From contig JAQUQS010000004.1 in the NCBI GenBank assembly GCA_028715965.1, forward strand, positions 61,963 through 125,962: DNA of 64,000 nt, written 5' to 3'. This document shows, one piece after another, positions 4,122-55,117 of this stretch (within the stretch, counting starts at the first letter, position 1; the number at the start of each line of letters is the position of its first letter). The notes under the pieces are model-generated. The model made no database searches and was not told the origin of the DNA. It saw nothing but the letters and a program-made list of their open reading frames with translations. The position numbers and the translations under genes were made by a program. This DNA comes from Candidatus Omnitrophota bacterium (GTDB taxonomy: Bacteria > Omnitrophota > Gorgyraeia > Tantalellales > Tantalellaceae).

Positions 4122-4162
4122 TAATATAGATACTAAAACTGGTTCTTTTAAATGGATTTTTT

Positions 4163-4297
4163 GAAAAAGGCAACCTCCGTGAAAGCGGAAGGGCGCAAAG
4201 CTATAAGAGCCTAAGACCTCAAGGGGTTACGGTAGTCAGCTGCCAAAGAGAGAAGGTATACATTGACCCATGGCTATTATAGTCATGGGTTTTTTTA
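4163..4297 (+). ncRNA. candidate c-di-GMP-I (GEMM) riboswitch aptamer (4163-4244) plus intrinsic terminator (hairpin 4267-4289, U-tract 4290-4296) in the tpsA-1 5' UTR
   Basis: AAAAAGGCAACC..UGAAAG..GGGCGCAAAGCU..GCCUAAG..GGGGUUACGGUAG..CAGCUGCC aligns block by block with the GEMM consensus and the Vc2 riboswitch (GGCAAACC / GNRA loop / GGGACGCAAAGCC / GCCUAA / GGGGUUACCGA / GCUnCC). Followed by a 10-bp hairpin CCCAUGGCUA-UUA-UAGUCAUGGG and U7. Confidence 0.5.
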
Positions 4298-7300: not shown

Positions 7301-10300
7301 GTGGGCTGGGAGGGTATATTGATATCGATAGGGATGTCTCTACCAGCAGGTGGTATAACGCTTCGAATACTGATGGTGTCGGTTCACTTGCCGATGGGGA
7401 TACGTTGAAAGAAATAGCCGAGTATTTCACTGACGGCAGCTCAGAGATATATACAAACTGGGATTTCACGGTCGATGGGACCGGGGCGGGTTCGGGAACG
7501 TGGATCATGGCGGGTCTGCCGCACCTCCAGATGGAATGGACGGACACCATAACGACCCTGGAAGAGCTGCAGATGATCCTGCTGGACTATGACGTGTCAT
7601 ATACCCTTGCGAATGACATTGACGCGGCGGCGACGACGGGCTGGAATTGGAACAGCACACGTGGCGTGTATGAGGGGTTCAAGCCATTGACGCTTTTCTC
7701 CGCGACATTTGACGGTTCGGGGTATGAGATATCCGGACTTAACATTGACCGTACCGATACCAATATAGGGATGTTCGGAGTGGTCTTTGCCAGTACGATC
7801 CAGGATCTTTCCCTTTCTTCGGCCAGCATAACGCACAGTGACGCCGTAAGTTCTTATAATCTTGGGGGTGTGGCGGGGTTGGCATATAGCGCTTATCTCA
7901 ACGACATATCGTTCTCGGGAACAGTTTCTGGCTCTACCAGTTCAGGTGACGCGTTTATCGGAGGTCTAACTGGATATATGAACGCCGGGGGCGTAAGCGG
8001 GATCAGTACTGCGGGGACCGTAACCGGGGCATCGAGCCTAGGCAAATGCTATGTGGGAGGGGTGATAGGGCAGTTATATACATCGGCCGCGGGGACCATC
8101 GAGGTAACGCTTTCCGATTCTTCTGCCGATGTCTCCGCGGATTCTGTGGGAGGATATAATTTCGTGGGAGGGCTTATCGGGTCCATAGAGCTGGCTGATT
8201 TCAACCTGGGAAGCGTTTGTAACGTTACTGATTCATACGCCACGGGGGACGTTTCCGGTAATACCACATTCACCCATGTTCTCGCCGGGGGACTTATAGG
8301 CAGGCTGTATATCGCGTACAATGCCGATGTTAACGTGGAAGATTGTTACGCCACAGGTGATGTTTCAGCTACGGGAACACAGCAGGCCCGTGCCGGGGGG
8401 TTGATGGGGCAATTTTCCTCAAATGGCGCTGAATCATACGTAACAATGAACAACTGCTACGCTACGGGAGATGTTACGGCGGTGGCCGGACTTACCGATG
8501 AGTATCCCGCTATGGCGGGTGGGCTGATAGGCTTGGTCCGGGCCGACGCGGACGGGACGACCATTATCAATAACTCTTTCGCAACGGGGACCGCTTCGGC
8601 CACGGGAGCCAGGCCGCGTGAATGCGGATTGGTAGGATGGGATGCCGGGGGAGAATACAATGATTGCCTGTGGTTTAACTCCACAAATATACAGGGGATG
8701 TACTTCGAGACACCTGACTCATATGACGGTACGGCGCTGAAGGCCGCCAGTCTTCCGGACCTTTTCGACGCGGATAGCGATCTTTTCTCTACATGGGATC
8801 TTACCGCGGACGGTACCGGCGGACAATGGGTCATACAAAGCAGGGCCGCTCCCCCCGATTTTTACAGGGAATACAACGTATGGACGGGCGGTGGAACGAC
8901 CAATAATTGGTCGGATGCCGCTAACTGGAGCGCCTTAGCCGCACCATCGATCTTTAGCAAAGTACTTTTGAGTTCCGTTAGCACGAAAAGTGTCACATGG
9001 GATTCTGATATCACCGTGGCAAAAATGCATATAGATGCTTCGTACACGGGACAATTGACACAGGGTGACGGGTACGAGCTTACCGCCACGGACGTTTATT
9101 ACCAGGGCGGTGGTACCGTGCGGACATCGGGAACGGACCTTTCTGTCGAGGGAGGTACTTTTGTGCAGGACGGAGGAAGCATCACGCTGGCCAGTGGCGG
9201 GGATATCTACCTGGATAGCGCCGGGTATATGGAGCTTTATGACGTCTCCTGCGGGGACGAAAGCACTATATACTTAGGTTCAAGGGAAGCCCCGAGCTCG
9301 GTAGTCGTGACCGGGACGATAAGCACGTTATATCCCGGTGGGTCCCAAAGCGGTCTTGAGATATATTCCGATGGCGGGATAAGTGTCGAAGGCGCGGTGG
9401 GCGGTTCAACTTATTATTTCGACTCCATCCACCTTTACCTGGACCATGATGATAACTCCGCGCTCAGCAATATACACGGAAGTTTTTACGCTGACCTGGT
9501 ATATGTACTCGCGCAGAACAATATTGTGGTGGACGGCACACTGGCCAATGACGCGGGAGCTCTTTACGTTGGGCAGCCGGGATATACCCCGGATTCTATA
9601 ACCCAGGACGGGAGAGTGCGGGCCGCTACTTATGTGGGAATGTATGCTAACGTGGACATAAACATGTACGATGAACTGTCCTCTAACGCTAGCATGTGGA
9701 TAATGGCCGATTATGACGATAACGGGTCAGGGGCCTTCCGGCAGGTAAGCGGCAGTATAGTTTCATATGGCGACCTATCCATAGATGGTTCCGGGGAGAT
9801 GGTCCTGGGTTATGTTTATCTGGGAGATAGCGCGGACATGACCATAGGAGAATATCGCACTCCGGATATCGTAACGATCGATATTGGTGTGGGCGGTGCC
9901 GCCGGAGGCGGGGACATCTCTATATATTCGAACGGAGATATCAACCTGGGCGGGGATATAGGTTCCGGTTCTACGGTATTCAATAACGTCAGGTTCTACC
10001 CGGACTATGACTCAAATGCCGGGATGAGTACCGTGGGAGGAAATGTATACGCGGATTATTTTTATATCGAGACGGATTCACCGCTGTCCCTTACTGAGAC
10101 CAATGTCTATGGTGGAGGACTTTATGTGGGGGCGTTGGGCAGGGCTCCGATTTCCGTGTCGACCTTGGAGCCTTTATATGGGTTCTATGACATCGATATA
10201 TATTCCGACGGAGATATCCTTATCGGGGACGATATATATGGATATGAAGTTGAGCTGTTCGCGGATTATGATGGCAATGGCACGGGAAGTTTCACCCAGA

Positions 10301-12778: not shown

Positions 12779-12819
12779 TAAATTGATACTAAAACCGGTT
12801 CTTTTAAATGGATTTTTTG

Positions 12820-12953
12820 AAAAAGGCAACCTCCGTGAAAGCGGAAGGGCGCAAAGCTATAAGAGCCTAAGACCTCAAGGGGTTACGGTAGTCAGCTGCC
12901 AAAGAGAGAAGGTATACATTGACCCATGGCTATTATAGTCATGGGTTTTTTTA
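12820..12953 (+). ncRNA. second copy of the candidate c-di-GMP-I (GEMM) riboswitch plus intrinsic terminator, in the tpsA-2 5' UTR
   Basis: Nucleotide-identical to 4163-4297 (aptamer about 12820-12900; hairpin 12924-12946; U-tract 12947-12953). Confidence 0.5.
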
Positions 12954-13015: not shown

Positions 13016-16000
13016 ATGAAGATGACGGGACTGCTGAAGAGAACGGTGAGCGTACTTGTGGTGTTCAGTTTTTTGAACGCTCAGGTGGCGTATTCTCTCC
13101 CACAGGACGTTGAGGTGGTGGAAGGCGCGGCGGATGTTAACATAGAAGGCGCGACGATGACGATAAACGCCGACGCCGGCACTATCCTGAATTATTCCTC
13201 GTTCGACCTTGCCGAGGGGGAGTCAGTGATAATAAACCTGCCGGGGATAGACGCGGATATACTTAACCGTGTTATCGGCGCCGGCGCGTCGAACATAGCG
13301 GGGGCCATCTCATGTAACGGGCTTTTCATACTCGTGAACACTAGCGGTATATATCTCGCGTCGACGGCGAATATCGACGTTGGCAGTCTGGTGCTTTCCA
13401 CGCGGGATATCACTAACTCTGATTTTGTTAACGGGAAGTATTTCTTCCAGAAGATCTCGGAGGAAGCGCTGGATACGCTCCTTAAGAACGCGGGCACGAT
13501 AAACGTGCGTGAAGGCGGGTTCGGCGTCCTTATAGCGGGAGCGATAGAGAACTCGGGTATGATCGTGGCGCCTATGGGGCGTATACACCTGGCCGCGGGA
13601 GACGCGGTGACACTCGCGCTTTCGAGTGACGGGCTTATAAGTGTCGCGATAGACGAGAAGGTGGCGTCGACGATACATGATATGGACGGGAACCCGATAA
13701 CCGACCAGATAACGAATACCGGTTCGATCATAGCCGACGGCGGGGTAGTGGCTATAAGCGCCGAGTCGCTCACGGACATATTCAGGAACGCTATAAATCT
13801 TGATGGTATAGTGCAGGCGGATACGATGAGTTCTACTGCTGGCGAGATAAGTATAACCTCCTCGAGTGATATAACCCTCGGGGGTGGGATATCAGCCGTA
13901 GGGGGCATGATAGGAGTGATCTCGGAGGAAGGGTCGATAAGAGCCGAGGAGACATCGGAGATGACGGCGCAGGACGTATACGTGGAGGCCCAGAGGGACA
14001 TATCTCTTGAGGGAACGATAGAGACGATGGAAGGTGGGCTTGTCGATCTCCACGCCCTTAACGGGTCGATGTACTCACATGGTTCCATAATAGCGCCTGA
14101 GGGGGAGATAAATGTGTGCGCGGCGTATGACCTTGACCTCGGGGGGTTCTACAAGGCGAGCCGCATGGTGTTCGACCCTGAGGAAGTGAACATAACGAGC
14201 GACTGGACGGGATCAGGGGATACGACGTTCTGGGCGACGGGGAACATAAATGTGCAGGCTAACATGACGCTGGAGGAAGGTAGCTTTTATTTCTATGCCG
14301 ATTCCACCGATGCCAGCGGCACATATGACGACGGTTCGGGTACGTTCACGCAAAGCTCCAGCTCAACTATAACCGCTGATTATGATATATCCATAGACGG
14401 CTCCGGGAGCGTATCGGTGGGCGGTGTTGTCTCCAATATGGGAAGCATACATATCGGACAAGTCACAGGCAACCATGATGTGTCGTATATAGGCATGCTT
14501 GGCTCATTGTATGCGAGTAATGAGGTAACGCTTTATTCCGATGGTGATATACACCAAGGTGGGGACATGACAGGTGAGGTCATATATCTGTATCCAGATC
14601 ATGACTCCGATGGCAGCGGCCAGTTCCAGACAAGTTTATCGTATGTCATCAATGGGATGGATCTCTACCTTGACCAGAGCACGGACATAGACATAAGTAA
14701 TTTTAACGCGAATGTGGAATATTTTTATATCGGTAACAACGGGATCACGCCCAGTTCCGTTACGATCGGTGGCGAGAATCATGTGTATGGGACACTCGAC
14801 ATTACTTCCAACGGTGATATCGTCCAGAATGGGACGATCTATTCTGAGGCCGGATACGGGCTTTACCTGCAACCCGATTATGATAACGACGGGAACGGCC
14901 AGTTTATACAAAATTCAGGAAGCATTTGTAACTTTTATGAGATGAGCCTGTATCAGGGTACCAATATCACGCTTGATTATTACATGGACACCTACAATGT
15001 TTACGGGATCAACATATATGGCGAAGGTGAGGTTAACCTCAATGGCGGCATATATGCGACAAGCGATTTGTACGTGTACGCAAATGACGGTATTTCTTTG
15101 GGCGGTCCGCTACATTTCGATTATTACCTTGAGCTAAACGCCGATTATGACAACGATGGGTACGGCAGCTTGGTCGCGAACGGGAACAGCATATCCCCAG
15201 TAAGTTATTTTGATACGGCTAACATAACTACTGCAGGCGATCTTAACGTATCTGACATCGAAAGCCTGTTTTCCGGCGATGTTCCGGCAACTTCTTTGAC
15301 TTTGCGTTCGACCGCAGGCAATATCACACTCGACCAGTATTATGATCCCGAGTTCTTATATTCGCTGCAACTTATAGCGGCTGATGATATCAACTTGAAT
15401 GAGTGGATAGCGTTATCATACGGCAATGTTGGCCTGATCGCCGATTATGACGGAGACGGAGACGGTAATTTCAATTTCTCATCGGCAGGGATAAGCGCGG
15501 GCTCCGTTACTTTCAGTAAGAACAGTGATTTCAGTATCACATCGGATCTTATCTCCGACATAGACGCCAGCAATATCACATTCACGGCCGGCGGGGATTC
15601 CGACCTCTCGGTTGATGCCAGCCTATCATGCAGCGGGGCATTAAATCTACAGGCGGATGGGGATATTTCCATTAATTATGGGGTCAGCACAGGGACCACA
15701 TTTTCGGTCGTTGCCGATTACGACACGGATAATTCCGGGAACGTTATCTGGTATAGCGGGGTGTCCGCGAGTATGGGGACAGGAGGGACGCTGAGATACC
15801 AGCAAGCCGATAGTTTCGCGTATTCGGATGTAACAAGCCGTGTTTATGGACAAACGACAGGAGGGGTCACGTTGAGGTCTACGAACGGTTCGGTGACCGT
15901 GGACCAGGCGATCACGCTCAGGACCGGCATCATCGATCTAAGGGCGGATGAGGACCTGCTTATAAATTCAAATATATCCACCACGAGCTCATCAACTATG

Positions 16001-19000
16001 TATCTTTACGCGGACGCGGAGAACAACGGTTCAGGGGGCTTTATGCAATCGGGGTCGGCTTCTATAACTTCAGGAGGGACCGCCCAGATCGCGCTACGCG
16101 CGGCAGGCACGGGAAGTTTATTGGGCGATATAACGGCCGGCCGGTTATATCTTTACGCGCAGTCAGGTGGCGCCACATATGCGCTCCAGGACGGGTGTAA
16201 TGTGGACCTGAATTATTACACTTCTTCCTATGGTCTTTATGTCGCCAGTAATGCTATATTTAACGGTGGAAATAATACGACCATATCTACGGGAGGAGAC
16301 TGGTGGGTGGACGGCACGTTCAATGGGCAGGGATCTACGGCCATATTGGATGGTACGTATTCCGGCACGAAGGATATACGGATGGACGCGGGCTCATTCA
16401 ATAACCTTACGATAAACGCGAGCGGGACATATTCCCCATATACTTCCACCACGCCTACGGTAGTTGCGGGCGGTGACCTCAGCATCACTGCGGGCATATT
16501 GAGCATGACCACGAACGATCTCGTGGTAGGCGGAGACCTTCTTATCGACGGAGGCGTACTTATCGCCAATGGCGCGGGTGTGGACATTGATGTCGATGGG
16601 GATGTCTTGATCCGCGCGGGGGACTTTTTCGCCCCGACGGGCCTGGACGATGTTTCGTTCACGGTAGGGGGCGGATTTGAAGTATCGGGTGCGGGTGATT
16701 ATTATAACGGCAATGGAAGGGTCGTATTCGATTCATCCGATATAGGGAACGATATCATCCTTACAACCTCCGGGTCCTATTTTTTCAATGACGTAAAGTT
16801 CAGCGGCGGAGGTGAATGGACTCTCACCGGCCTTATGCTGGCCTCCGGTGATCTGTATATGTATGACGGGACGCTCGTCGCCGGAGGACTGATAATAGCC
16901 GCGGATACATTAGCAATGGATGGCGGGAATATCACAAGTGATGGAAATGATGTCGAGATCATCGCTTCGACTTTTACGCAGACAGCGGGGGCGATAACGA
17001 CAACATCAGAAGGGGATGTGAAGATCAGTTCTACCGCTATGCCCGGGGCATTTACTGTCGGGGAGATAAATTCCGATGGTGGTGTTTTCATCGGAGAGAC
17101 CAACGCTCCGGTCACGGTCAGCCAGACATCAGGGACATCAATAACAGCGGTGGGAGATAGAGGCATAGAGATCAGCGCGTCAGGCGATATTACACTGCGG
17201 CAGGTCAATTCCGGAAGTTACGACACGACGATCACGTCAACGGCGGGGTCCATCCTCGACGGGCTTACGGGAGAAAGCGCGAACATAACGGCGGCAGCGG
17301 CTACACTCACGGCGGCTACGGGTATAGGTGTAACTGGAAGCGAGGACCTTGACCTTGACGTGGCGACGCTTGACGCGTCCGTAACGGGTACGGGTGACAT
17401 TTATATATGGGAGGACAGCGCGATAACATTAAGTGATGTTGATACCAGCGCGGGCAAGATAGATATATCATCAGGGGGAACAATGACCGCGACGGATGTC
17501 GTGGCTGGCGATACGGGAGAAGTGTGGCTGACAACGACGAGCGGGAACATACAGGCTGGCGTGATCACGGCTTCCGGGAGCAAGGTAGTTCTCGCAGCCG
17601 CGGGTGCGATAACGGACACGAACGGTGCGAGCGTTAATATAACCGGGAGCACGGTGGACCTTGATGCCGCGACAGGCATAAGTGTGGATACTTCGGTGAA
17701 TAATATCACGGCGGACGTGTCCGGGGTCGGGAATGTCGACATAAGCGAGACAGATGATGTGAACATTAACGGTGTCTCCTCATATGAGGGGGATATCATA
17801 TTGACAAGCGGCGGCGTTATGACCGTTGCCGATGACATATCCGCCACAGGCTTCGGGAATATATCCATGACCGCCGACGGGATGAACCAGACCGGTGGCA
17901 GTATATACGCGCCCGCGGGCGAGATATGGATCGATGGCGCGGGTGATATTGTCCTGGGGGCCATAGAGGCGGCTGGGAATCTGACCATCGGGTCCAATGT
18001 GGCGCCGGATTCCGTGACCTTTAACGAAGATATCCACGCGTATAATAGCATAGACGTTATATCCAACGGGAACATTGACCAGAACGCGGACATATACAGT
18101 GACGGATCGTATGATATCTATCTGCGTCCCGACTATGACGGGGACGGTGCTGGGCAGTATTCGGGCAACGGGCATTCGCTTCTGGTGAACGCGCTTTATA
18201 TCGACCAATCGACCGATATGGTGCTTAACGGGTTTACTCTCCAGAATGGTTATGTGTTAGCCGGCACCCTTAGTGCGCCATCATCAATTACCGTGAACGG
18301 CGATATAAATGGATATTACGCGTTTTACGCGGAAAGTAACGGGAATATCGACGTGAACGCGAATATATACACGCAATATGACCTGTATCTCGACGCGGCC
18401 GGTGATATAAACATAAATTCACTTTTGAGTTCAGGGGACGTGATATCTATAGGGGGATCCATATCGCCATCCTCTGTGACAATAACATCCGCTGGTTCCA
18501 TATATTCGGGGAATACCGTTACAATATCATCCGGCGGTGATCTGGTTTTCGATAACCTGTCAGGGGCGATAGACTCGTATTTCCTGACCGGTAACGCCGG
18601 AAGCGACATAACGGTGGCGAACACCCTCAATATCGGTGTCGGATTATCCCTTGACGCCACGGGCAATATAGATGCCGAGGGCTCGATCGGTGGTATGTCT
18701 GAGACGCTTACCCTTAACGCGGGCGGGTATATTGATATAGCGGGGACCGCTACAGGGATAACCGCTGTAACGATAGACGCTTCGGGTGATGTGACCCTGG
18801 GGGGCATTGACTGCCAGGGAGACCTCGCGATAGGCGGGACGACTTCCCCGGCGAATGTTCACCTTAACGGTAGTAGCACGGTTACGGGTACTAACACGGC
18901 CCAGATCAGTTCGGCCGGGAATGTTGCCTTCAATGGCGATCTTGTCACGATATGTGGTATCACGGTCAGCGCGGTGAATAATGTTACGATAGCTAATAGT

Positions 19001-21109
19001 ATTACCGGAGTTAATTCGGATATTTCACTGTACGCGGGGGGGAATATCAGCCATGCCTCCGGCACGGTATCTACGGAAACGAGCGGGGACATATATATGA
19101 ACGGCGGCGGGGATCTCGCTTTGCGCAATATCAACAGCGCTGGGAGTGTATACGTGGGTGATCCTGAAGCTCCTTTATCTATCACGCAAGGAACGGGAAC
19201 TGTGATCAACGCGGGTGGCGATATCAGCGTTGTGTCCGCGGGTGACGTAACGCTTGCGGAGTTGATCTCCGGGTCCGGGAGCGTTTCGGTGACCTCGTCC
19301 GGCGGGGGGATATACGATGGACTCGGCACGACCGACGCGAATATTACGGCCGGAAGCCTTACTCTTAGCGCGGCTACGGGAATAGGCATCCTGGGTGGAG
19401 AAGATGTCGATATCTCCGCGGATTCTCTCTTCGCTGAGGTCACGGGTCCGGGCGACATACATATAAATGAATTCGGGAGCATAACGATAAGCTCAACAAG
19501 CACTTATGACGGCTCGATCGATATCACATCTGAAGAGAAGATGACGGTATCGGATATTGCCGCGGGCGGTGCTGGCGATATTTCGCTTTGTACGGGGTCA
19601 GGAGACCTGGAGCTCGCGGGGAATATAACGGCGAACGCGGGGAATGTTTCTCTTGCCGCGGGCGGCGCGTTTACGCATATATCCGGAGTCATACATACTG
19701 ATACGACGGGAGATGTGAGCATTAGTTCGGTTGGCGCGTCATCACTTGGGGACATAACGAGCGCGGGGGCGCTGAACCTGGATACCGGAAGCGCAGCTAC
19801 TTATGGTTCGACCGGCACAATTGATACGGTGGGAGCCGTGGTGATAAGCAGCGGGGTCAATGTGGACGCCAATTCCTCGGTATGGACGGTAGGAGGGGAC
19901 TGGACGAATAACGGTACGTTCAATGGAGACACTTCGAGTGTAACGCTTGACGGCGCAAGTGACGCCGCGGTGACGGGCCCTAACACCTTCGGTGACCTTG
20001 CGATAGAGACGGAGGGTAAGACCGTAACGTTCGAAGCGGGCGAGACCCAGACGGTTACCGGCGAGTTCAGCGCGCAGGGTTCCTCGGGGGTCGGCAACCT
20101 GGTGACGCTCAGGAGTTCGTCCGCCGGCAGCGCGTGGGGGCTGGACATACAGGGCGCGGCAAGCGTCAATTTCGCGGACGTCAAGGATTCGGCGAATGTC
20201 GGGACCGAGATCACGGCCACGAATTCCAAGGACAGAGGAGGCAACACCGGCTGGAGTTTTGAGTCATCGCTTCTTACATGGCTGGGAGTTAGCTCGACCA
20301 GCTGGGATGACGCTTCCAACTGGGACCTGGGATACGTGCCGAACGTAAGTGACAGCGTGGAGATAGTATCCGCGGGTAATTACGCGGCTTTAGTTTCGGA
20401 TGTCGAGATAAACTCTCTTACGATAGACTCGGGCGGCCGGATGGACGCGGGTTCTTACAGGATAACGGTTTCCGGTGACTGGACGAACGCGGGTACGTTC
20501 AACGCGGGTACGGGCACGGTCGTTTTCGATCCGATGACGGGGACATCGCGGATAAGCGGGTCGACTATGTTCAATGACCTCACCTGCGTAACTCCTGGAT
20601 CCACGCTGGTATTCGGTTCGGGGACGACGCAGACGGTGAACGGCAGGCTTGACATATCAGGTTCGGTATCAAGCCGAATAAACCTGATGGGTTCGGTAGC
20701 GGGAAGTTATTGGCATATAAACCCTAAAGGGGCGATAAGCGTGACGAACGTTACAGTGAGGGATTCATACAATGACAAAGGCGTATTCGTGGATCCAGCG
20801 GGGTCGGTGGATAACGGTAAGAACCTTTTCTGGTTCACGCCTCCGGTTAACGATATACCGGACGAGACGGATAACGTGGGTCAGAACAAGAACAATATGA
20901 TCCTTGAAGGGAAAGGAAATGACTCTTTCGACCCCAGGGGTGTGGCGAATGGTCCTGCCGGGACAGGCATATTCATGGAGGACTATTTCGTCAACACGGG
21001 TTTTGGCATGGTATCCTCGGACGGGTCGCCATTTTTTATGTATCATGGTCTTTCTGACCCCGACATATATGGGCGCCGCGAACTCCCTGATCGGGACATG
21101 GTGGTTTAG
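13016..21109 (+). CDS. two-partner secretion exoprotein TpsA-2 (2697 aa): first 470 aa identical to TpsA-1 (TPS domain), then an unrelated beta-helix-like repetitive passenger with DYDxDGxGQF repeats and two copies of a conserved C-terminal module
   Basis: N-terminal 470 aa, and the antisense ORFs, are identical to TpsA-1. Divergence starts at ..SVSVGG(I/V)VS... Low-complexity G/T/S/D/N-rich repeats are typical of TpsA passengers. Confidence 0.85.
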   Translation: MKMTGLLKRTVSVLVVFSFLNAQVAYSLPQDVEVVEGAADVNIEGATMTINADAGTILNYSSFDLAEGESVIINLPGIDADILNRVIGAGASNIAGAISCNGLFILVNTSGIYLASTANIDVGSLVLSTRDITNSDFVNGKYFFQKISEEALDTLLKNAGTINVREGGFGVLIAGAIENSGMIVAPMGRIHLAAGDAVTLALSSDGLISVAIDEKVASTIHDMDGNPITDQITNTGSIIADGGVVAISAESLTDIFRNAINLDGIVQADTMSSTAGEISITSSSDITLGGGISAVGGMIGVISEEGSIRAEETSEMTAQDVYVEAQRDISLEGTIETMEGGLVDLHALNGSMYSHGSIIAPEGEINVCAAYDLDLGGFYKASRMVFDPEEVNITSDWTGSGDTTFWATGNINVQANMTLEEGSFYFYADSTDASGTYDDGSGTFTQSSSSTITADYDISIDGSGSVSVGGVVSNMGSIHIGQVTGNHDVSYIGMLGSLYASNEVTLYSDGDIHQGGDMTGEVIYLYPDHDSDGSGQFQTSLSYVINGMDLYLDQSTDIDISNFNANVEYFYIGNNGITPSSVTIGGENHVYGTLDITSNGDIVQNGTIYSEAGYGLYLQPDYDNDGNGQFIQNSGSICNFYEMSLYQGTNITLDYYMDTYNVYGINIYGEGEVNLNGGIYATSDLYVYANDGISLGGPLHFDYYLELNADYDNDGYGSLVANGNSISPVSYFDTANITTAGDLNVSDIESLFSGDVPATSLTLRSTAGNITLDQYYDPEFLYSLQLIAADDINLNEWIALSYGNVGLIADYDGDGDGNFNFSSAGISAGSVTFSKNSDFSITSDLISDIDASNITFTAGGDSDLSVDASLSCSGALNLQADGDISINYGVSTGTTFSVVADYDTDNSGNVIWYSGVSASMGTGGTLRYQQADSFAYSDVTSRVYGQTTGGVTLRSTNGSVTVDQAITLRTGIIDLRADEDLLINSNISTTSSSTMYLYADAENNGSGGFMQSGSASITSGGTAQIALRAAGTGSLLGDITAGRLYLYAQSGGATYALQDGCNVDLNYYTSSYGLYVASNAIFNGGNNTTISTGGDWWVDGTFNGQGSTAILDGTYSGTKDIRMDAGSFNNLTINASGTYSPYTSTTPTVVAGGDLSITAGILSMTTNDLVVGGDLLIDGGVLIANGAGVDIDVDGDVLIRAGDFFAPTGLDDVSFTVGGGFEVSGAGDYYNGNGRVVFDSSDIGNDIILTTSGSYFFNDVKFSGGGEWTLTGLMLASGDLYMYDGTLVAGGLIIAADTLAMDGGNITSDGNDVEIIASTFTQTAGAITTTSEGDVKISSTAMPGAFTVGEINSDGGVFIGETNAPVTVSQTSGTSITAVGDRGIEISASGDITLRQVNSGSYDTTITSTAGSILDGLTGESANITAAAATLTAATGIGVTGSEDLDLDVATLDASVTGTGDIYIWEDSAITLSDVDTSAGKIDISSGGTMTATDVVAGDTGEVWLTTTSGNIQAGVITASGSKVVLAAAGAITDTNGASVNITGSTVDLDAATGISVDTSVNNITADVSGVGNVDISETDDVNINGVSSYEGDIILTSGGVMTVADDISATGFGNISMTADGMNQTGGSIYAPAGEIWIDGAGDIVLGAIEAAGNLTIGSNVAPDSVTFNEDIHAYNSIDVISNGNIDQNADIYSDGSYDIYLRPDYDGDGAGQYSGNGHSLLVNALYIDQSTDMVLNGFTLQNGYVLAGTLSAPSSITVNGDINGYYAFYAESNGNIDVNANIYTQYDLYLDAAGDININSLLSSGDVISIGGSISPSSVTITSAGSIYSGNTVTISSGGDLVFDNLSGAIDSYFLTGNAGSDITVANTLNIGVGLSLDATGNIDAEGSIGGMSETLTLNAGGYIDIAGTATGITAVTIDASGDVTLGGIDCQGDLAIGGTTSPANVHLNGSSTVTGTNTAQISSAGNVAFNGDLVTICGITVSAVNNVTIANSITGVNSDISLYAGGNISHASGTVSTETSGDIYMNGGGDLALRNINSAGSVYVGDPEAPLSITQGTGTVINAGGDISVVSAGDVTLAELISGSGSVSVTSSGGGIYDGLGTTDANITAGSLTLSAATGIGILGGEDVDISADSLFAEVTGPGDIHINEFGSITISSTSTYDGSIDITSEEKMTVSDIAAGGAGDISLCTGSGDLELAGNITANAGNVSLAAGGAFTHISGVIHTDTTGDVSISSVGASSLGDITSAGALNLDTGSAATYGSTGTIDTVGAVVISSGVNVDANSSVWTVGGDWTNNGTFNGDTSSVTLDGASDAAVTGPNTFGDLAIETEGKTVTFEAGETQTVTGEFSAQGSSGVGNLVTLRSSSAGSAWGLDIQGAASVNFADVKDSANVGTEITATNSKDRGGNTGWSFESSLLTWLGVSSTSWDDASNWDLGYVPNVSDSVEIVSAGNYAALVSDVEINSLTIDSGGRMDAGSYRITVSGDWTNAGTFNAGTGTVVFDPMTGTSRISGSTMFNDLTCVTPGSTLVFGSGTTQTVNGRLDISGSVSSRINLMGSVAGSYWHINPKGAISVTNVTVRDSYNDKGVFVDPAGSVDNGKNLFWFTPPVNDIPDETDNVGQNKNNMILEGKGNDSFDPRGVANGPAGTGIFMEDYFVNTGFGMVSSDGSPFFMYHGLSDPDIYGRRELPDRDMVV

Positions 21110-22995
21110 GTCGTTGGTACGGTTAAGGGATCGGTCTCTTTGCGGCGGATCGTCAGGATATTGTTGTCCAGTAGTTCATTTGCCGAAGGGGTCCCGGAAA
21201 GCATGTCGGGAAGACCTTCACGAGGGGTCTCGGAGCGCATACTCTTTATCCTTTCCCATTCCTTGGGCAGGTTCTCCTCGAAAGTAAGGGCGAAATGGAA
21301 ACGCGGGTTCGGGGACTCAGTGGTGGCTTTGTCCGGTCCTATGGGGAACCCCCATTCCAGGCGTAAGAGCGCCTGATTGTACAGACGTATACGTAGTCCA
21401 GCTCCGATGCTGGAATAGTTGACATGTTGTCTCTCCTCATCTTTTCTGGCCGCGCGTTTTTCCCCGTAACCGTAATCCATGAAACACAGGAGGTTCACGT
21501 TGTTACGCAGGCTGTCCTGGGCGTATGGCAGTTTCCATGACTCCGGGATGAACGGGCAGGGGACGAGTAGGTCCAGATTCATTATAAAGCCGTTGTCGGC
21601 CATGTAGTCCTGGGCCGGATATCCGCGTATCGAATCGATACCACCCAGGGAAAGTTGTTCCTGCGACGCGAGTTTTTCTCCGGAGAACTGGGTCTTGATG
21701 TTCAGGGCCGCCTGTAATGAGGCCGGAAATAGTTGCCGGTGTTTTATGTCAAGGTTGAACTTGGTGAAAGTGTTCCCGGCGGTCCCGTTCCTGGAAGAAA
21801 GGGGATGTTTGCGTCTGGCCCCGAACGCGTTAAGCCCCTGGGATAGCTGGGGTGAGATATACGTTATCGCGCCGGGGTTGCGGCTTATGATGTTGCTTTT
21901 GAGCCGGGCGGTACGGAAACGATCGCGTATAAGCGTGCCTTCCTCGGTGGTGGTCACTTTGTCGTTGGAGTCCATGCCCAGCGAAATGTCCCCAAGATAT
22001 TCCGATCTCTTGTACAGGTCCTGGCTGACCGTGAAGCTGGCGCTCTGTGACCTTGACCGTATGCCATAGACAGAGAACTGTTTTCTTGGCGCGGAACGTG
22101 AGTCGGAATATCCGTAAATTATGTTCGTCCCGAAATTTGTTATGGGTACGGAGTGATACATATACATGCCGCTGAAATACTGGCCAAACGTGTATCCGGA
22201 AAGAAAGGTATCATCGACGAAGAGGGCATTATTATGTCTTACTCCGAAACCGTACCTGTCCCCGCCGGTGGAAGGAGCTCCTTCATTGTCGTATGAGAAA
22301 AACCCATGTATGGGGAAGTAAGATGTCGTGTCCAGCATCACGTCGGTAGTTCCTATTTCCTGCCCGGCGATAAGAGTGGCTTTTACGTCCCGGTCGGGAT
22401 TTTTGTTCATGAGTTGCAGGCTCCGGCTCATTTTATCATAACGCAGGACCTGTCCCGGTTTGATGTCCCAGTAGTATTTTACGCGATCGACCTGGTTGGG
22501 GTCTCGGCTTTGTATCTTAAGTTCTCCCATTTTAGCCTCGACCACCCGCAAAGTGACCACGCCGTTCTTGATGTCCTGCGGAGGGAGGAAACAGGCCGCT
22601 ATGACCCCTTTCTTCAGATACTCTTTTTCGATGTTCTTTGTTATCTCCGTGAGCTCCGCCAGGTCGGTATCCTTACCGATGGAATCAGCGAAGAGCGGAG
22701 TGAATTCGTCGGGGGGAAAAGTCTCGGTACCTTCGAGGACCACTTCTTTTAACAGGAAAGTAGGGCCTTGAGGTATGGCTTTTTCCTCTTCCTCGATCTT
22801 TTCGGGTGCCTGGGGAGGCGTTGTCGTGAGTTTTTCCTCGGCTTCCTCGCGGAATGGCCTGTCCACCTCGCGTGTGGCCATGTCTATCGTGCTTTCGCTG
22901 GGGAGAGGCTGGGAGAAACACGCCCGATACACGAGCGTGGACATTAACAATACGAAAACCACCTTTTTAATGAATGATGTGTACATATGATTCAA
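21106..22995 (-). CDS. TpsB outer-membrane transporter (ShlB/FhaC/HecB family, Omp85 superfamily)
   Basis: Signal peptide. POTRA_2-like region (FLLKEVVLEGTETFPPDEF..GKDTDLAELTEITKNIEKEYLKKGVIAACFLPPQDIKNGVVTLRVVEAKMGELKI). Hallmark loop-6 motif EQLSLGGIDSIRGYP. Beta-barrel-like C-terminal half ending ..RFHFALTF. Convergent with tpsA-2; the stop codons overlap by 4 nt. Confidence 0.85.
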   Translation of the reverse strand: MNHMYTSFIKKVVFVLLMSTLVYRACFSQPLPSESTIDMATREVDRPFREEAEEKLTTTPPQAPEKIEEEEKAIPQGPTFLLKEVVLEGTETFPPDEFTPLFADSIGKDTDLAELTEITKNIEKEYLKKGVIAACFLPPQDIKNGVVTLRVVEAKMGELKIQSRDPNQVDRVKYYWDIKPGQVLRYDKMSRSLQLMNKNPDRDVKATLIAGQEIGTTDVMLDTTSYFPIHGFFSYDNEGAPSTGGDRYGFGVRHNNALFVDDTFLSGYTFGQYFSGMYMYHSVPITNFGTNIIYGYSDSRSAPRKQFSVYGIRSRSQSASFTVSQDLYKRSEYLGDISLGMDSNDKVTTTEEGTLIRDRFRTARLKSNIISRNPGAITYISPQLSQGLNAFGARRKHPLSSRNGTAGNTFTKFNLDIKHRQLFPASLQAALNIKTQFSGEKLASQEQLSLGGIDSIRGYPAQDYMADNGFIMNLDLLVPCPFIPESWKLPYAQDSLRNNVNLLCFMDYGYGEKRAARKDEERQHVNYSSIGAGLRIRLYNQALLRLEWGFPIGPDKATTESPNPRFHFALTFEENLPKEWERIKSMRSETPREGLPDMLSGTPSANELLDNNILTIRRKETDPLTVPTT

Positions 22996-51859: not shown

Positions 51860-53806
51860 ATGTCGATGAACATGAGCCTGACATATAAGATATTGAAAGA
51901 ACACCTTGTCGCCGGGGAACTGGAGCCGGGGAAAGAGATCGGGATAAGGATAGACCAGACGCTTACACAGGACGCTACCGGGACAATGGCGTACCTTCAG
52001 TTCGAGTCCATGGGGATACCCCGGGTGCGAACGGAGATATCGGTAAGTTATGTGGACCACAATACGATACAGCAAGGCTTTGAGAACGCGGATGACCACA
52101 GGTATTTGCGGACCTTAGCGTCCAAATATGGTATATATTTTTCCCGTCCGGGTAACGGTATCTGCCACCAGGTCCATCTGGAGAGGTTCGGGGCTCCGGG
52201 TAAAACACTTCTTGGCAGCGACAGCCATACCCCGACCGGCGGCGGTATCGGCATGATAGCCATCGGGGCTGGCGGGCTGGATGTGGCTGTGGCTATGGGT
52301 GGCGGGGCGTTCTACCTTACGGCTCCTCGGGTCATAAAGGTCGAGCTTGTAGGGAAACTGAGAAAATGGGTCTCGGCCAAGGACGTGATCTTGCATATAC
52401 TGGATGTCCTGTCCACTAAAGGCAATGTTAATATGGTGCTTGAGTACGCGGGGGAGGGGGTCAAAACGCTTTCAGTGCCGGAAAGGGCCACCATAACCAA
52501 TATGGGCGCCGAAACAGGCGTTACGACCAGTATTTTCCCTTCCGATGAAATGACGTTAAGGTTTTTGCGCGCCCAGGGTCGGGAAGCGTCCTGGAGGGAG
52601 TTGGCGGCCGATGAGGGCGCGAACTATGACCGCGTGTTAACGGTCGATCTTGCTAAAGTTGTGCCTATGGCCGCGGCGCCGCATTCACCCGGGAATGTGG
52701 TCAAGGTCGCTGATATCGCAGGTCTTAAGGTTGACCAGGTGGCTATCGGAAGCTGTACGAATTCCTCATTGAGGGATCTATTCGTAGCGGGAGAAGTGCT
52801 TTCCGGGAAAAAAGTCCATCCGGATACGTCGCTTGTGGTCGCGCCCGGGTCTAAACAGGTGTTTTCCATGATATCAAAAAGCGGGACGTTGACCAAGATG
52901 ATCGCTGCCGGCGCGCGGATAATGGAGAGTGTCTGCGGTTTTTGCATAGGAAATGGACAGGCCCCGGAATCCGACGCGGTCTCTGTCCGTACAAGCAACC
53001 GGAATTTCGAAGGACGTTCCGGGACCAGGTCGGCGCGGGTCTATCTTGTTTCTCCCGAGACAGCGGCATTATGCGCGATAAACGGTAAATTCACGGATCC
53101 TTTATCCGTGCCGGAAGGATCATACCCTGAATTCCATATGCCTGCAGAGTTCGATGTCGATGATAGTATGGTGTTGCCGCCTTCGGACCCGCAACGAGCT
53201 GGGGCAGTTAAGGTGCTCAGGGGGCCGAATATCGGTGACCCGCCCAAGAACAAGCCACTTAACGATTCCTTGGCAGGAGAGATCGCCATCAAGGTCGGTG
53301 ACAAGATCACTACCGACCATATAATGCCTGCCGGTAGCCGGCTGAAATATCGTTCGAATGTCAAAAAGTACTCGGAATACGTTTTTGAGGGCGAGGACCC
53401 CACTTTTTCCGCACGTGCTGCCGTATTGCGTAACCGGGGTAAAAGTGTCTTTATCGTGGCGGGGGAGAGCTATGGGCAGGGTTCGAGCCGTGAACATGCC
53501 GCTTTATGTCCAATGTTCCTGGGGGTCAAGGCGGTGATCGCGCGCTCTTTTGAGCGGATCCACGCGGCAAATCTAGTGAATTTCGGTATTTTACCGCTGG
53601 TCTTTGATGACCCGGAGGACTATGACCGGGTAGATCTGGGAGACCAGGCCGAAATTAATGGCATATTAGACGCTCTGGGGGCTGATATCGACCTGTTGCT
53701 GGAAGTGCCTGCCAAGGGCCTTAAAATGCGTTTAAAGTACCATTTATCGGCACGTCAGCGTGAGATAGTCATGGCCGGAGGGCTGTTGAACTATACCGCA
53801 AGGTAA
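51860..53806 (+). CDS. aconitase-family hydro-lyase (putative aconitate hydratase, 650-aa single-chain type)
   Basis: Fe-S ligand Cys (..IGSCTNSS.., ..CGFCIG..), aconitase signature ..SNRNFEGR.., and a C-terminal swivel-domain motif ..GESYGQGSSREHAAL.. in one polypeptide. Confidence 0.8.
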   Translation: MSMNMSLTYKILKEHLVAGELEPGKEIGIRIDQTLTQDATGTMAYLQFESMGIPRVRTEISVSYVDHNTIQQGFENADDHRYLRTLASKYGIYFSRPGNGICHQVHLERFGAPGKTLLGSDSHTPTGGGIGMIAIGAGGLDVAVAMGGGAFYLTAPRVIKVELVGKLRKWVSAKDVILHILDVLSTKGNVNMVLEYAGEGVKTLSVPERATITNMGAETGVTTSIFPSDEMTLRFLRAQGREASWRELAADEGANYDRVLTVDLAKVVPMAAAPHSPGNVVKVADIAGLKVDQVAIGSCTNSSLRDLFVAGEVLSGKKVHPDTSLVVAPGSKQVFSMISKSGTLTKMIAAGARIMESVCGFCIGNGQAPESDAVSVRTSNRNFEGRSGTRSARVYLVSPETAALCAINGKFTDPLSVPEGSYPEFHMPAEFDVDDSMVLPPSDPQRAGAVKVLRGPNIGDPPKNKPLNDSLAGEIAIKVGDKITTDHIMPAGSRLKYRSNVKKYSEYVFEGEDPTFSARAAVLRNRGKSVFIVAGESYGQGSSREHAALCPMFLGVKAVIARSFERIHAANLVNFGILPLVFDDPEDYDRVDLGDQAEINGILDALGADIDLLLEVPAKGLKMRLKYHLSARQREIVMAGGLLNYTAR

Positions 53807-53861
53807 CCACAATATATAACGCCAAACAGGTCTTTTCCTTATTAATAAGTTAACATAACAT

Positions 53862-54945
53862 ACATTATCGGACGTTGCAAATGGAGGGCCTCTGGGGTGT
53901 TTTTAAGGGGTTTTTGAGCGACGTTCGATAATGTGATCTGGCGCCTCTTTGCGGGACAACGTCCAATAATGCCGGAACATTATCCGACGATACCCTGCTT
54001 CGCATATCATCCGATAATATTCCCCTAAGCGCGTCTATTTTTGGTATCAGTACCGCGCTTATCGGACGTTGCAAATGGAGGGCCTCTGGGGTGTTTTTAA
54101 GGGGTTTTTGAGCGACGTTCGATAATGTGATCTGGCGCCTCTTTGCGGGACAACGTCCAATAATGCCGGAACATTATCCGACGATACCCTGCTTCGCATA
54201 TCATCCGATAATATTCCCCTAAGCGCGTCTATTTTTGGTATCAGTACCGCGCTTATCGGACGTTGCAAATGAGGGCTTTCTAAGGGTGTTTGCCTGGGTT
54301 TTGTCCCGAGTTTTTCACGTCGGATAATGTATGAATACTTCGAGACAATTCCCAACATCCAATAATGTGGGAATATTATCCGACGATACCCTGCTTCGCA
54401 TATCATCCGATAATATTCCCCTAAGCGCGTCTATTTTTGGTATCAGTACCGCGCTTATCGGACGTTGTAAATGAGGGCTTTCTAGGGGTGTTTGCCTGGG
54501 TTTTGTCCCGAGTTTCTCACGTCGGATAATGTATGAATACTTTGAGACAATTCCCAACATCCAATAATGCCGGAACATTATCCGACGATACCCTGCTTCG
54601 CGGATCATCCGATAATATTCCCCTAAGCGCGTCTATTTTTGGTATCAGTACCGCGCTTATCGGACGTTGCAAATGGAGGGCCTCTGGGGTGTTTTTAAGG
54701 GGTTTTTGAGCGACGTTCGATAATGTGATCTGGCGCCTCTTTGCGGGACAACGTCCAATAATGCCGGAACATTATCCGACGATACCCTGCTTCGCATATC
54801 ATCCGATAATATTCTCCTAAGCGCGTCTATTTTTGGTATCAGTACCGCGCTTATCGGACGTTGCAAATGGAGGGCCTCTGGGGTGTTTTTAAGGGGTTTT
54901 TGGGCGACGTTCGATAATGTGATCTGGCGCCTCTTCGCGGGACAA
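53862..54945. repeat. noncoding tandem array of 5.5 units of 194-202 bp (order A-A-B-B-A-A'), each dense in ATAATG/CATTAT-type inverted motifs
   Basis: Unit starts (TTATCGGACGTTG) at 53865, 54059, 54253, 54455, 54657 and 54851. Units share 17 bp at the left and about 95 bp at the right, with two alternative central segments. Minus-strand ORFs here are repeat artefacts. Confidence 0.85.
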
Positions 54946-55117
54946 CTCCCTTAACCGCCTTTTCTTTACTTACATTGCTTTTTGAAGGTTGATTTGAAAT
55001 AACTTAAATATGATCGCATGTACTTGGCAATTTATTGTAAATTCGTATACTTTTTATAGTACGTTATTTTATGTTGACTGATATATGTTCAGGTTTTCAG
55101 ATAAAAGGAGTTGTCAT

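Follow-up and report, generated by a model that had tools for sequence, protein, structure and literature searches.

The 64-kb window of Candidatus Omnitrophota DNA analysed here (64,000 nucleotides of contig JAQUQS010000004.1, that is, the whole stretch under study) carries a chromosomal dif site, and a 1.1-kb tandem array whose units contain repeated copies of the dif XerC arm is attached directly to the XerC side of this site. On balance, the array is probably a gene-less, dif-anchored and Xer-related satellite of XerC half-site palindromes, shaped by Xer-mediated exchange and by unequal exchange between sister chromosomes. An initial annotation of the same DNA had described the repeats and missed the dif anchor; judged from the letters, the identity of the repeated motif with an arm of dif suggests which protein is likely to bind it and links the array to Xer recombination at the terminus. 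dif is among the best-studied bacterial recombination sites and is thought to be a bare 28-bp site under the control of FtsK. In the literature that could be searched, we found no description of arrays of XerC half-sites beside a chromosomal dif.

The dif site and the left boundary of the array

The sequence of dif in Escherichia coli is GGTGCGCATAA-TGTATA-TTATGTTAAAT (PMC3025954). The site in the window (Table 1) is identical to it at 10 of the 11 positions of the XerD arm and at 5 of the 6 positions of the hexamer, and the inner ATAA/TTAT dyad is whole. A match to the full 29 nt occurs once in the window, where none is expected by chance, and it lies in non-coding DNA between converging genes. 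According to published criteria, dif sites are non-coding, have inner arms that form an ATAA/TTAT palindrome, a centre of 6 bp and an XerD arm that is conserved, and coincide with the point where cumulative GC skew peaks (PMC2731167); all of these features were found at the window site. The cumulative GC skew reaches its maximum at the array. Skew is positive up to approximately 54 kb and near zero or negative thereafter, the sign change at 54–55 kb being followed by only 9 kb of DNA with one gene in the window. The identification as a bona fide dif-type site is firm, and we predict that it is the XerC/XerD dimer-resolution site at the replication terminus. With chromosomal dif, as known from E. 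coli (PMC2731167, PMC3025954), it shares the 28-bp 11-6-11 layout, a near-identical XerD arm, the ATAA/TTAT symmetry, a variable hexamer and the non-coding location at the switch of GC skew. Described sites stand alone, and a centre of 6 bp implies that accessory elements are not involved (PMC2731167), whereas here 1.1 kb of extra XerC arms adjoin.

The position at which the array begins ties it to this site. Unit 1 reads CATACA|TTATCGG and the other units read CCGCGC|TTATCGG, so that unit 1 differs solely to the left of TTATCGG and its homology to the other units starts exactly at 53865, the border between the central region and the XerC arm. In XerCD-dif recombination this border is the position of XerC cleavage. 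For a unit of 194 bp, a left homology boundary on the XerC cleavage position would be a coincidence of about 1 in 100. The whole array lies on the XerC side of dif.

Table 1. Coordinates of dif, the array, its boxes and the flanking genes, numbered from the first letter of the window
Feature	Position	Strand	Sequence and remarks
Chromosomal dif	53848-53875, read 53876-53848	-	AACGTCCGATAA-TGTATG-TTATGTTAACT; 11-6-11 site
dif XerD arm	53848-53858		TTATGTTAACT on minus strand
dif central hexamer	53859-53864		TGTATG
dif XerC arm	53865-53875/6		AACGTCCGATAA
Tandem array, 5.5 units	53865-54946		Tandem Repeats Finder, repeat extension, unit alignment
Unit 1 (A)	53865-54058		
Unit 2 (A)	54059-54252		
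Unit 3 (B)	54253-54454		
Unit 4 (B')	54455-54656		
Unit 5 (A)	54657-54850		
Unit 6 (partial A', 96 bp)	54851-54946		
Box 1	54059-54072	+	TTATCGGACGTTGC; identical to dif XerC arm, in dif orientation
Box 1, starts	53865 (dif arm itself), 54059, 54253, 54455, 54657, 54851		
Box 2	53922-53938	-	Inverted copy of the XerC arm with hexamer-like bases; in A units CGTTCGATAA-TGTGAT, in B units CGTCGGATAA-TGTATG (exact dif hexamer)
Box 2, copies	53922, 54116, 54318, 54520, 54714, 54908		
Box 3	53960-53970	-	Inverted XerC arm CGTCCAATAAT / CGTCCAATAA-TG; CATCCAATAAT in B units
Box 3, copies	53960, 54154, 54356, 54558, 54752		
Box 4	53979-53989	+	'CC' variant of XerC arm, ATTATCCGACG
Box 4, copies	53979, 54173, 54375, 54577, 54771		
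Box 5	54008-54018	-	CATCCGATAAT / CATCCGATAA-TA
Box 5, copies	54008, 54202, 54404, 54606, 54800		
AAGCGCG-N20-CGCGCTT inverted repeat	54027-54060		One per full unit, spans the junction into box 1; sequence reading, folds
Aconitate hydratase	51860-53806	+	Left flank, 3' end toward dif; Pfam Aconitase, Aconitase_C
Small open reading frame, 103 aa	55118-55429	+	Right flank; signal-peptide-like, no Pfam family
Giant open reading frame, 2810 aa	55473-63905	-	Converges on dif from the right

Units, XerC-arm boxes and palindromes

Tandem Repeats Finder detected the array as the sole one in the window, with a period of 194, 5.5 copies, 88% matches and a score of 1515 (secondary period 396). Gap-free repeat extension gave spacings of 194, 194, 202, 202 and 194 between unit starts, and alignment of the units gave the order A(194) A(194) B(202) B'(202) A(194) A'(96), in agreement with the architecture first annotated. 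The further description, that units swap a central 85–93 bp between two versions, needs one correction. A and B are homologous over their full length, with 48–76% identity and indels at unit positions 15–113 and 99% identity over the 3' 81 bp and box 1; they are diverged alleles of one segment, and unrelated swapped inserts are ruled out. Unit 4 is a mosaic that is B in its leftward part and A-like around the spacer between boxes 3 and 4. Units 1 and 2 are identical in sequence and unit 5 is off by 1 nt. The A/B mosaic in unit 4 indicates that exchange may still be ongoing, and the near-identity of units indicates a probably recent turnover.

Two short-read contigs from Logan enter the array. 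L001 comes from the left and ends 30 nt into unit 1; L169 begins 41 nt before the array end and contains a single-nucleotide polymorphism specific to the last unit. Because these independent contigs reach in from either side, both array junctions are real. L001 and L169 both stop inside the array, and the copy number of the units is that of this one assembly.

The 11-nt motif that had been noticed in both orientations, ATTATCSGACG, has 26 matches with at most one mismatch in the window, compared with 3.7 expected, and none of 100 shuffles reached 26. All matches except one (25 of 26) lie within 53864–54918, in both orientations. By its sequence, this motif consists of the dif XerC arm and the first 1–3 central-region bases (…CGATAA|TG…). 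There are five boxes in every full unit; at the threshold of one mismatch five are found in A units and four in B units, the fifth B-unit box (CATCCAATAAT) having two mismatches. An array of protein-binding sites, as suggested initially, remains its best general description.

Within the array, GGTATCAGTA-CCGCGC precedes box 1 where the XerD arm and the hexamer would be. GGTATCAGTA shares no more than 6 of 12 positions with the XerD arm, a non-significant resemblance. We found no credible XerD arm beside any box of the array, and XerD-arm-like matches are not enriched there. We infer that the boxes would bind XerC as half-sites without an XerD partner. In A units, box 2 pairs with box 1 in a 14-bp stem. 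Boxes 3 and 4 stand tail-to-tail with the spacing ATAA-N10-TTAT. We rejected this pair as a functional Xer core, because its spacing, against 6 bp in dif and 8 bp in cer, is predicted to be non-catalytic. A Fur box (GATAATGATAATCATTATC) was rejected as well on reading the sequence: the half-sites are similar, but their spacing is N8 instead of N7 and the middle is not A/T rich.

Two further palindromes had been ascribed to every unit. The ATAATG-N6-CATTAT repeat is found in the A units and in unit 4, whereas unit 3 has ATAATG-N6-TATTAT. The GCGCG..CGCGC hairpin is present in each full unit as AAGCGCG-N20-CGCGCTT; it is not conserved in the related loci L037, L084 and L020 described below. The view that the array is not a CRISPR was upheld, and so was the view that its reading frames are repeat artefacts: the periods 194 and 202 are not divisible by 3, and the open reading frames (ORFs) of the array have no Pfam matches.

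The many short repeated sites in a non-coding region would also suit an iteron, centromere or origin-like array, a dispersed element of the repetitive extragenic palindromic (REP) or miniature inverted-repeat transposable element (MITE) type, or an assembly artefact. Even taken jointly, these explanations are hardly credible. None of the ORFs scanned in the 64-kb window is a rep, par, dnaA, xer or phage gene, and the surrounding operons are housekeeping operons. The GC-skew polarity is of the terminus type, opposite to that of an origin, and the DnaA box (TTATCCACA) matches at only 5–6 of 9 positions (own comparison); this candidate was rejected. The initial suggestion of an iteron- or centromere-like array is thus not maintained. 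With respect to REP or MITE elements, the window has a single, chance-level motif match outside the array, with a mismatch, in line with the earlier distinction of the unit from a dispersed mobile element. An artefact is contradicted by the junctions confirmed in independent assemblies and by private single-nucleotide polymorphisms in individual units.

Boxes 4 and 5 together form an imperfect palindrome of 19–22 bp (e.g. 54369–54388 with 54401–54420). We aligned it across nine units from four genomes (alignment A1, which comprises recognisable palindromes only), and 85% of the cells were paired. Compensatory changes occurred in 10 of the 20 pairs; none of 500 shuffles gave a value as high, nor did slides of ±3. 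Examples of changes on both sides are GGGAAT/ATTCCC, GTCGAC/GTCGAC, GTCAAT/ATTGAC and GCAAAT/ATTTGC. Two mismatches recur, C.C at one position in eight of the nine units and C.A at another in six of them. When wobbles are included the minus strand pairs better than the plus strand (92% versus 85%), with 14 G.T pairs versus 1. The stem extends approximately 7 bp past ATAA|, so that the 'central region' is covered and a second arm is absent. In the box 1/box 2 stem of the A units the wobbles are on the opposite strand to those of box 4/5. Fold energies were modest: z was -3.8 for RNA of the minus strand, -0.8 for RNA of the plus strand and -2.3 for the plus strand as DNA. The upkeep of the palindrome suggests single-strand folding, cruciform extrusion or palindrome-correcting template switching. 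Judged from the skew, the minus strand would serve as template for the lagging strand in the replichore on the right-hand side of dif.

A repeated structured non-coding RNA (ncRNA), or a structure of single-stranded DNA (ssDNA), with conserved hairpins in each unit was considered. The compensatory changes in the box 4/5 helix, the strand asymmetry of pairing and the minus-strand fold favour it, and the initial idea of a structured ncRNA retains some plausibility from the one palindrome per unit that shows compensatory changes. There is, however, no Rfam match on the array even at E<10 (best E-value 0.96), and promoter- and terminator-like sites are no more frequent than in shuffled sequence, with none on the minus strand. 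The low plus-strand z and the strand reversal of the wobbles in the box 1/box 2 stem do not fit an RNA either. The stem sequence is invariant and equals the site of a DNA recombinase, and in an alignment restricted to recognisable palindromes, palindrome-correcting template switching could mimic covariation. Taken together, we regard a structure of this kind as decidedly improbable.

A different role for the folded strand is suggested by the composition of the stem, which consists of the XerC arm plus approximately 7 bp of 'central region', by the conserved C.C/G.G mismatch and by the better pairing of the presumed lagging-strand template. On these grounds the XerC-arm palindromes might be folded single-strand recombination sites that are recombined with dif by XerC alone, which we consider unlikely. 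If true, this would amount to a hairpin system, integron-like or self-amplifying and driven by Xer, that produces cassette arrays without genes at the termini of bacteria of the Planctomycetes–Verrucomicrobia–Chlamydiae (PVC) group, and chromosome dimer resolution could be tuned by it in lineages whose cell division is unusual. Integron integrases are related to Xer recombinases. As in integrons, where attI is followed by attC sites, a duplex site is followed by a one-sided array of imperfect palindromes with conserved mismatches and strand-asymmetric pairing. Unlike integrons, the array has no nearby integrase or intI, no GTTRRRY core and no R/L boxes, and its 100–200-bp 'cassettes' contain no ORFs.

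Relatives of the array and of its dif type

A search for the pattern TAACATAA-N6-TTATCGGACGTT in metagenomes, and for a looser pattern in viral contigs, revealed the dif-type site in at least 120 metagenome contigs, with one copy each and many different hexamers, and in at least 120 viral contigs. Among 43 loci with at least 1.5 kb on either side of dif, the skew was of the terminus type, higher in the left than in the right flank, in 32 (binomial p=0.002), irrespective of the orientation of the site. From these data a dif consensus TTATGTTAAC/A-N6-TTATCGGACGTT (opposite strand) can be given for Omnitrophota, Planctomycetota and other uncultured groups. In 2011, dif prediction failed for the single Planctomycetes genome tested (PMC3025954).

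Among the approximately 250 dif loci listed, clusters of XerC-arm boxes occur solely in the window and in three other loci, always on the XerC side, with 24 boxes per 1.2 kb in the window, 7 in L037, 2–3 in L084 and 5 in L020. The XerD side showed no comparable cluster; its flanks mostly have 0 boxes, and the viral contig L254 has 3 within 800 bp. Tandem Repeats Finder, applied to 252 dif flanks, detected long-period repeats adjoining dif only in the window and in L037. The latter, an Omnitrophota metagenome-assembled genome (MAG), has the dif AAGTTAACATAA-GATACA-TTATCGGACGTTG, followed on its XerC side by 3 to 3.5 diverged units of 114 bp that are 73% alike and have strictly alternating boxes. 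In the Planctomycetia MAG L020, two units of approximately 123 bp with the same boxes come after dif. L084, an Omnitrophota-like metagenome contig, has a dif identical to that of the window and one to two decayed units. Common to all four is a module of a box on the minus strand, 8 nt, a box on the plus strand in the CC variant, a loop of 18–38 nt and another minus-strand box, and the spacing from the start of box 3 to that of box 4 is 19 nt throughout. The spacers are not conserved between the genomes, and blastn of the other loci found only dif itself and no copy of the unit. The window array is by far the largest and the youngest of the four.

A box-pair scan with one genome per species gave 33 matches. 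Most were perfect palindromes arising by chance in unrelated phyla, and the informative ones were L037, L020 and Planctomycete loci with a double dif.

In these double-dif loci, a complete dif is followed after 20–30 bp by a complete inverted second dif (XerD arm-hexamer-XerC arm ... XerC arm-hexamer-XerD arm). The box-pair scan gave six Planctomycete loci and one binned to Alcaligenaceae; loci with a double dif include L011, L013, L026, L027 and L038 of Planctomycetota, L042 of the Alcaligenaceae bin, and L157. The two hexamers always differ at 2–3 bases beside the XerD arms, and L026 and L042 have the same pair in swapped order. In the window itself, 55069–55079 on the plus strand reads TTATGTTGACT, an XerD arm with one mismatch that is inverted relative to dif and lies 123 bp past the array end. 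It has no adjoining XerC arm and no counterpart in L037 or L084, and it could be what remains of the second site of an earlier double dif, or a chance match (approximately 1 per 64 kb expected).

Other tandem repeats, of approximately 98–99 bp and without XerC-arm boxes, were observed near dif sites of this type in L103 (C side, approximately 1.15–1.5 kb) and in L138 and L141 (D side, approximately 120–400 bp from dif). Terminus regions may be generally prone to tandem duplication.

The conserved arrangement raises the alternative that the array is a selected accessory region of dif, in which an array on the XerC side loads XerC or wraps DNA and thereby controls dif recombination. In this respect it would resemble the roughly 180 bp of accessory DNA that adjoin the XerC arm of the plasmid sites cer and psi, or the arm-type sites of lambda attP, and in PVC bacteria it might make up for a division or FtsK machinery that is unusual. 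This alternative overlaps with the satellite interpretation and differs from it by claiming selection for a function. The array is always on the XerC side, which is the geometry of cer/psi, and such extra DNA would fit an FtsK-independent, XerC-first pathway. Moreover, box identity, order and the 19-nt spacing are kept across two PVC phyla despite the divergence of the spacers, and both the C.C mismatch and the palindrome are retained. The accessory DNA of cer and psi, which is single-copy and approximately 160–180 bp long, binds PepA together with ArgR or ArcA. It binds these proteins and not XerC, and unlike the array it is not built of recombinase half-sites. Approximately 98% of the listed contigs with the same dif have no boxes, including L103, L161 and L266 (dif and flanks identical to Omnitrophota-like ones), so the boxes are not generally required. 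Copy number and unit length vary widely (114, approximately 123 and 194/202 bp), and no site for an accessory protein was identified in the array. A selected accessory region is therefore unlikely in our view.

The location at the skew switch beside dif, with dense oriented sites in both orientations, might also suggest a terminus roadblock, i.e. a protein-coated array that halts the replication fork, FtsK or SMC and so fixes termination or a domain boundary. In an archaeon, dif is reported to form a chromosomal domain boundary (PMC11840125). On the other hand, the array has no similarity to Tus/Ter or RTP sites, there is no candidate gene for a terminator protein nearby, and only few dif sites have an array. 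A roadblock therefore appears very improbable.

Many of the viral contigs carrying this dif type (L170–L289) are approximately 5 kb long and are gokushovirus-type Microviridae prophages with an F capsid (Phage_F), a Chp2 scaffold (Chlamy_scaf) and a rolling-circle Rep; examples from IMG/VR are L171, L174, L196, L203, L268 and L269. Their flanks are a full dif and a second site in which the XerD arm is kept and the XerC arm is degenerate. Enterobacterial gokushoviruses have been shown experimentally to be Xer-exploiting elements (PMC7062461). These contigs point to a large undescribed pool of presumptive Xer-exploiting ssDNA phages for hosts with this dif; many ssDNA gokushoviruses apparently target this dif type.

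A second group of viral contigs bears on the question of which protein binds the boxes. In the tailed-phage contigs L165 (3100–3640) and L168 (330–870), 7–10 TTATCGGAC boxes lie in both orientations within approximately 500 bp, upstream of terminase, portal and capsid genes and beside a strong sigma-70-like promoter (TTGACA-17-TATACT); their sequence equals the dif XerC arm, with no XerD arm. Among the phage ORFs beside the L165 cluster, no informative family was found. Inverted box pairs are also present in three further viral contigs. Together with the fact that dif is a hot spot for integrating elements, this would be consistent with a site array for another DNA-binding protein, for instance a decayed pac/cos-like or operator region of a phage or mobile element integrated at dif. 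However, the array units have no similarity to viral, phage or plasmid records beyond the box itself, 2.9 million viral contigs do not contain the three-box module, the array is not flanked by phage genes, and its boxes include the first bases of the dif central region. We consider an array for another protein improbable. As a separate observation, L029 (an uncultured bacterium, positions 770–1000) contains a perfect ATTATCGGACGTT-N12-AACGTCCGATAAT palindrome and two further boxes in a divergent promoter region without an XerD arm, which may be an operator-like use of the XerC-arm sequence.

Origin, comparison with known systems and genomic setting

We favour the interpretation that the array is a satellite anchored at dif and shaped by Xer-mediated and unequal sister exchange. 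It would have originated from an inverted second dif copy whose XerD arm decayed; this origin is proposed because box 2 of the B units keeps the dif hexamer and because the double dif of Planctomycetes resembles the intact form. Growth, shrinkage and homogenisation might then result from XerC-first illegitimate recombination between dif and boxes of the same orientation, with unequal homologous exchange between sister chromosomes as a further contributor. That this dif type is exploited by Xer-using elements, the gokushovirus-type prophages, counts in favour of this interpretation. Most likely, the array is a selfish or neutral by-product that would at the same time be a local XerC-binding platform or decoy, and it probably loads XerC.

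Several observations weigh against this interpretation. XerC strand exchange between dif and an internal box 1 should be disfavoured because the hexamer beside the latter, GCGCGG, has no homology to the TGTATG of dif. The right end of the array (…GGGACAAC|TCCC, 54946) is off any Xer cleavage position, and the argument from the left boundary applies to the window only, as the units of L037, L084 and L020 are out of register with the dif arm. The compensatory changes in the box 4/5 palindrome exceed what a simple duplex binding-site model needs. Among the scanned ORFs of the window there is no gene of the Phage_integrase family (xerC/xerD), and the box clusters of L165 and L168 indicate that a protein other than XerC could recognise the XerC-arm box. 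Finally, in 22 loci a contig end falls within 150 bp of dif on the C side, against 9 on the D side; the rarity of box arrays among public contigs may partly be an assembly bias, because short-read MAGs break at such arrays.

Among known systems, the arrays of integrative mobile elements exploiting Xer (IMEX), such as CTX-phi/RS1/TLC-phi in Vibrio cholerae and gokushovirus prophages (PMC7062461), are similar in that tandem DNA lies on one side of dif, dif-like sites in direct orientation stand at the unit junctions, one junction is at the Xer cleavage position and dif is retained at the end. The units of the window array differ from them by their length of 194–202 bp and by having neither genes, a replication function nor a convincing XerD arm. 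In the gokushovirus prophages found here the pattern is reversed, with the XerD arm preserved and the XerC arm degraded, and the right end of the array is not of the Xer type. Of the junctions expected for an IMEX array, the left one is at the Xer position, while the internal junctions have a perfect XerC arm, an unrelated hexamer and an XerD arm matching at 6 of 12 positions.

The pdif modules of Acinetobacter resemble the array in having Xer sites of alternating orientation that bound short modules, and the double dif of Planctomycetes (D-C ... C-D) looks like such a module without content. Unlike the array, which consists of chromosomal XerC arms only, pdif are complete XerC/XerD sites on plasmids that flank genes. 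Bacterial interspersed mosaic elements (BIME) and REP of E. coli and the Neisseria intergenic mosaic elements (NIME) with their dRS3 repeats are likewise intergenic mosaics of alternating imperfect palindromes between convergent genes, and dRS3 is also a target of phage integration. Those elements are dispersed in hundreds per genome, whereas the array is confined, within the 64 kb, to the flank of dif; its palindrome is the dif XerC arm and it has no GTAG/RAYT signature as found in BIME/REP.

If Xer recombination builds and resizes a satellite at the terminus, structural variation and assembly breaks at dif would have a source not recognised before. Alternatively, some lineages might regulate XerC locally, in ways unseen in model organisms.

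The window is ordinary housekeeping chromosome. Its genes include carbamoyl-phosphate synthase, CTP synthase, purine and pyrimidine synthesis genes, tricarboxylic acid cycle enzymes, isocitrate dehydrogenase and malic enzyme, as well as recN, c-di-GMP enzymes and two giant two-partner-secretion exoproteins. Genes to the left of the array are nearly all on the plus strand, and the giant gene to its right is on the minus strand. The coordinates confirm the annotated position of the array between aconitase and a small gene for a secreted protein, ahead of the 3' end of the giant minus-strand gene. The aconitase has its best homologues in Candidatus Omnitrophota, the nearest non-identical match showing 76% identity. 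Its nearest relatives (74–76% identity; P0002 and P0003 inspected) have another downstream gene order and no array.

The small ORF has a sigma-70-like promoter at 55024–55051 and is probably outside the element; a sigma-54 promoter upstream of it was rejected, with the spacing off by one and a -12 element of TTGT. The giant ORF has no Pfam family, and its C-terminal 700 aa, the subject of the one homologue search, gave no homologues. On visual inspection, an HExxH motif and a P-loop of the form GxxGxGKT can be seen in it. In the sister-sample Logan contig L169 the ORF is called with >4061 aa, and the 2810-aa ORF may be truncated through start-codon choice or a strain difference.

At the other end of the window, Rfam gathering thresholds applied to the whole window identified two c-di-GMP-I riboswitches, at 4159–4247 and 12815–12903, both with 65.6 bits. 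Each lies approximately 110–200 nt upstream of one of the giant paralogous two-partner-secretion exoproteins, whose ORFs (4360–12675 and 13016–21109) encode 2771 and 2697 aa with an N-terminal TPS (two-partner secretion) domain. A gene for a TpsB transporter of the ShlB/FhaC type follows them at 21106–22995 on the minus strand. The 5' regions of both riboswitch–exoprotein pairs resemble a recent duplication of approximately 8.6 kb.

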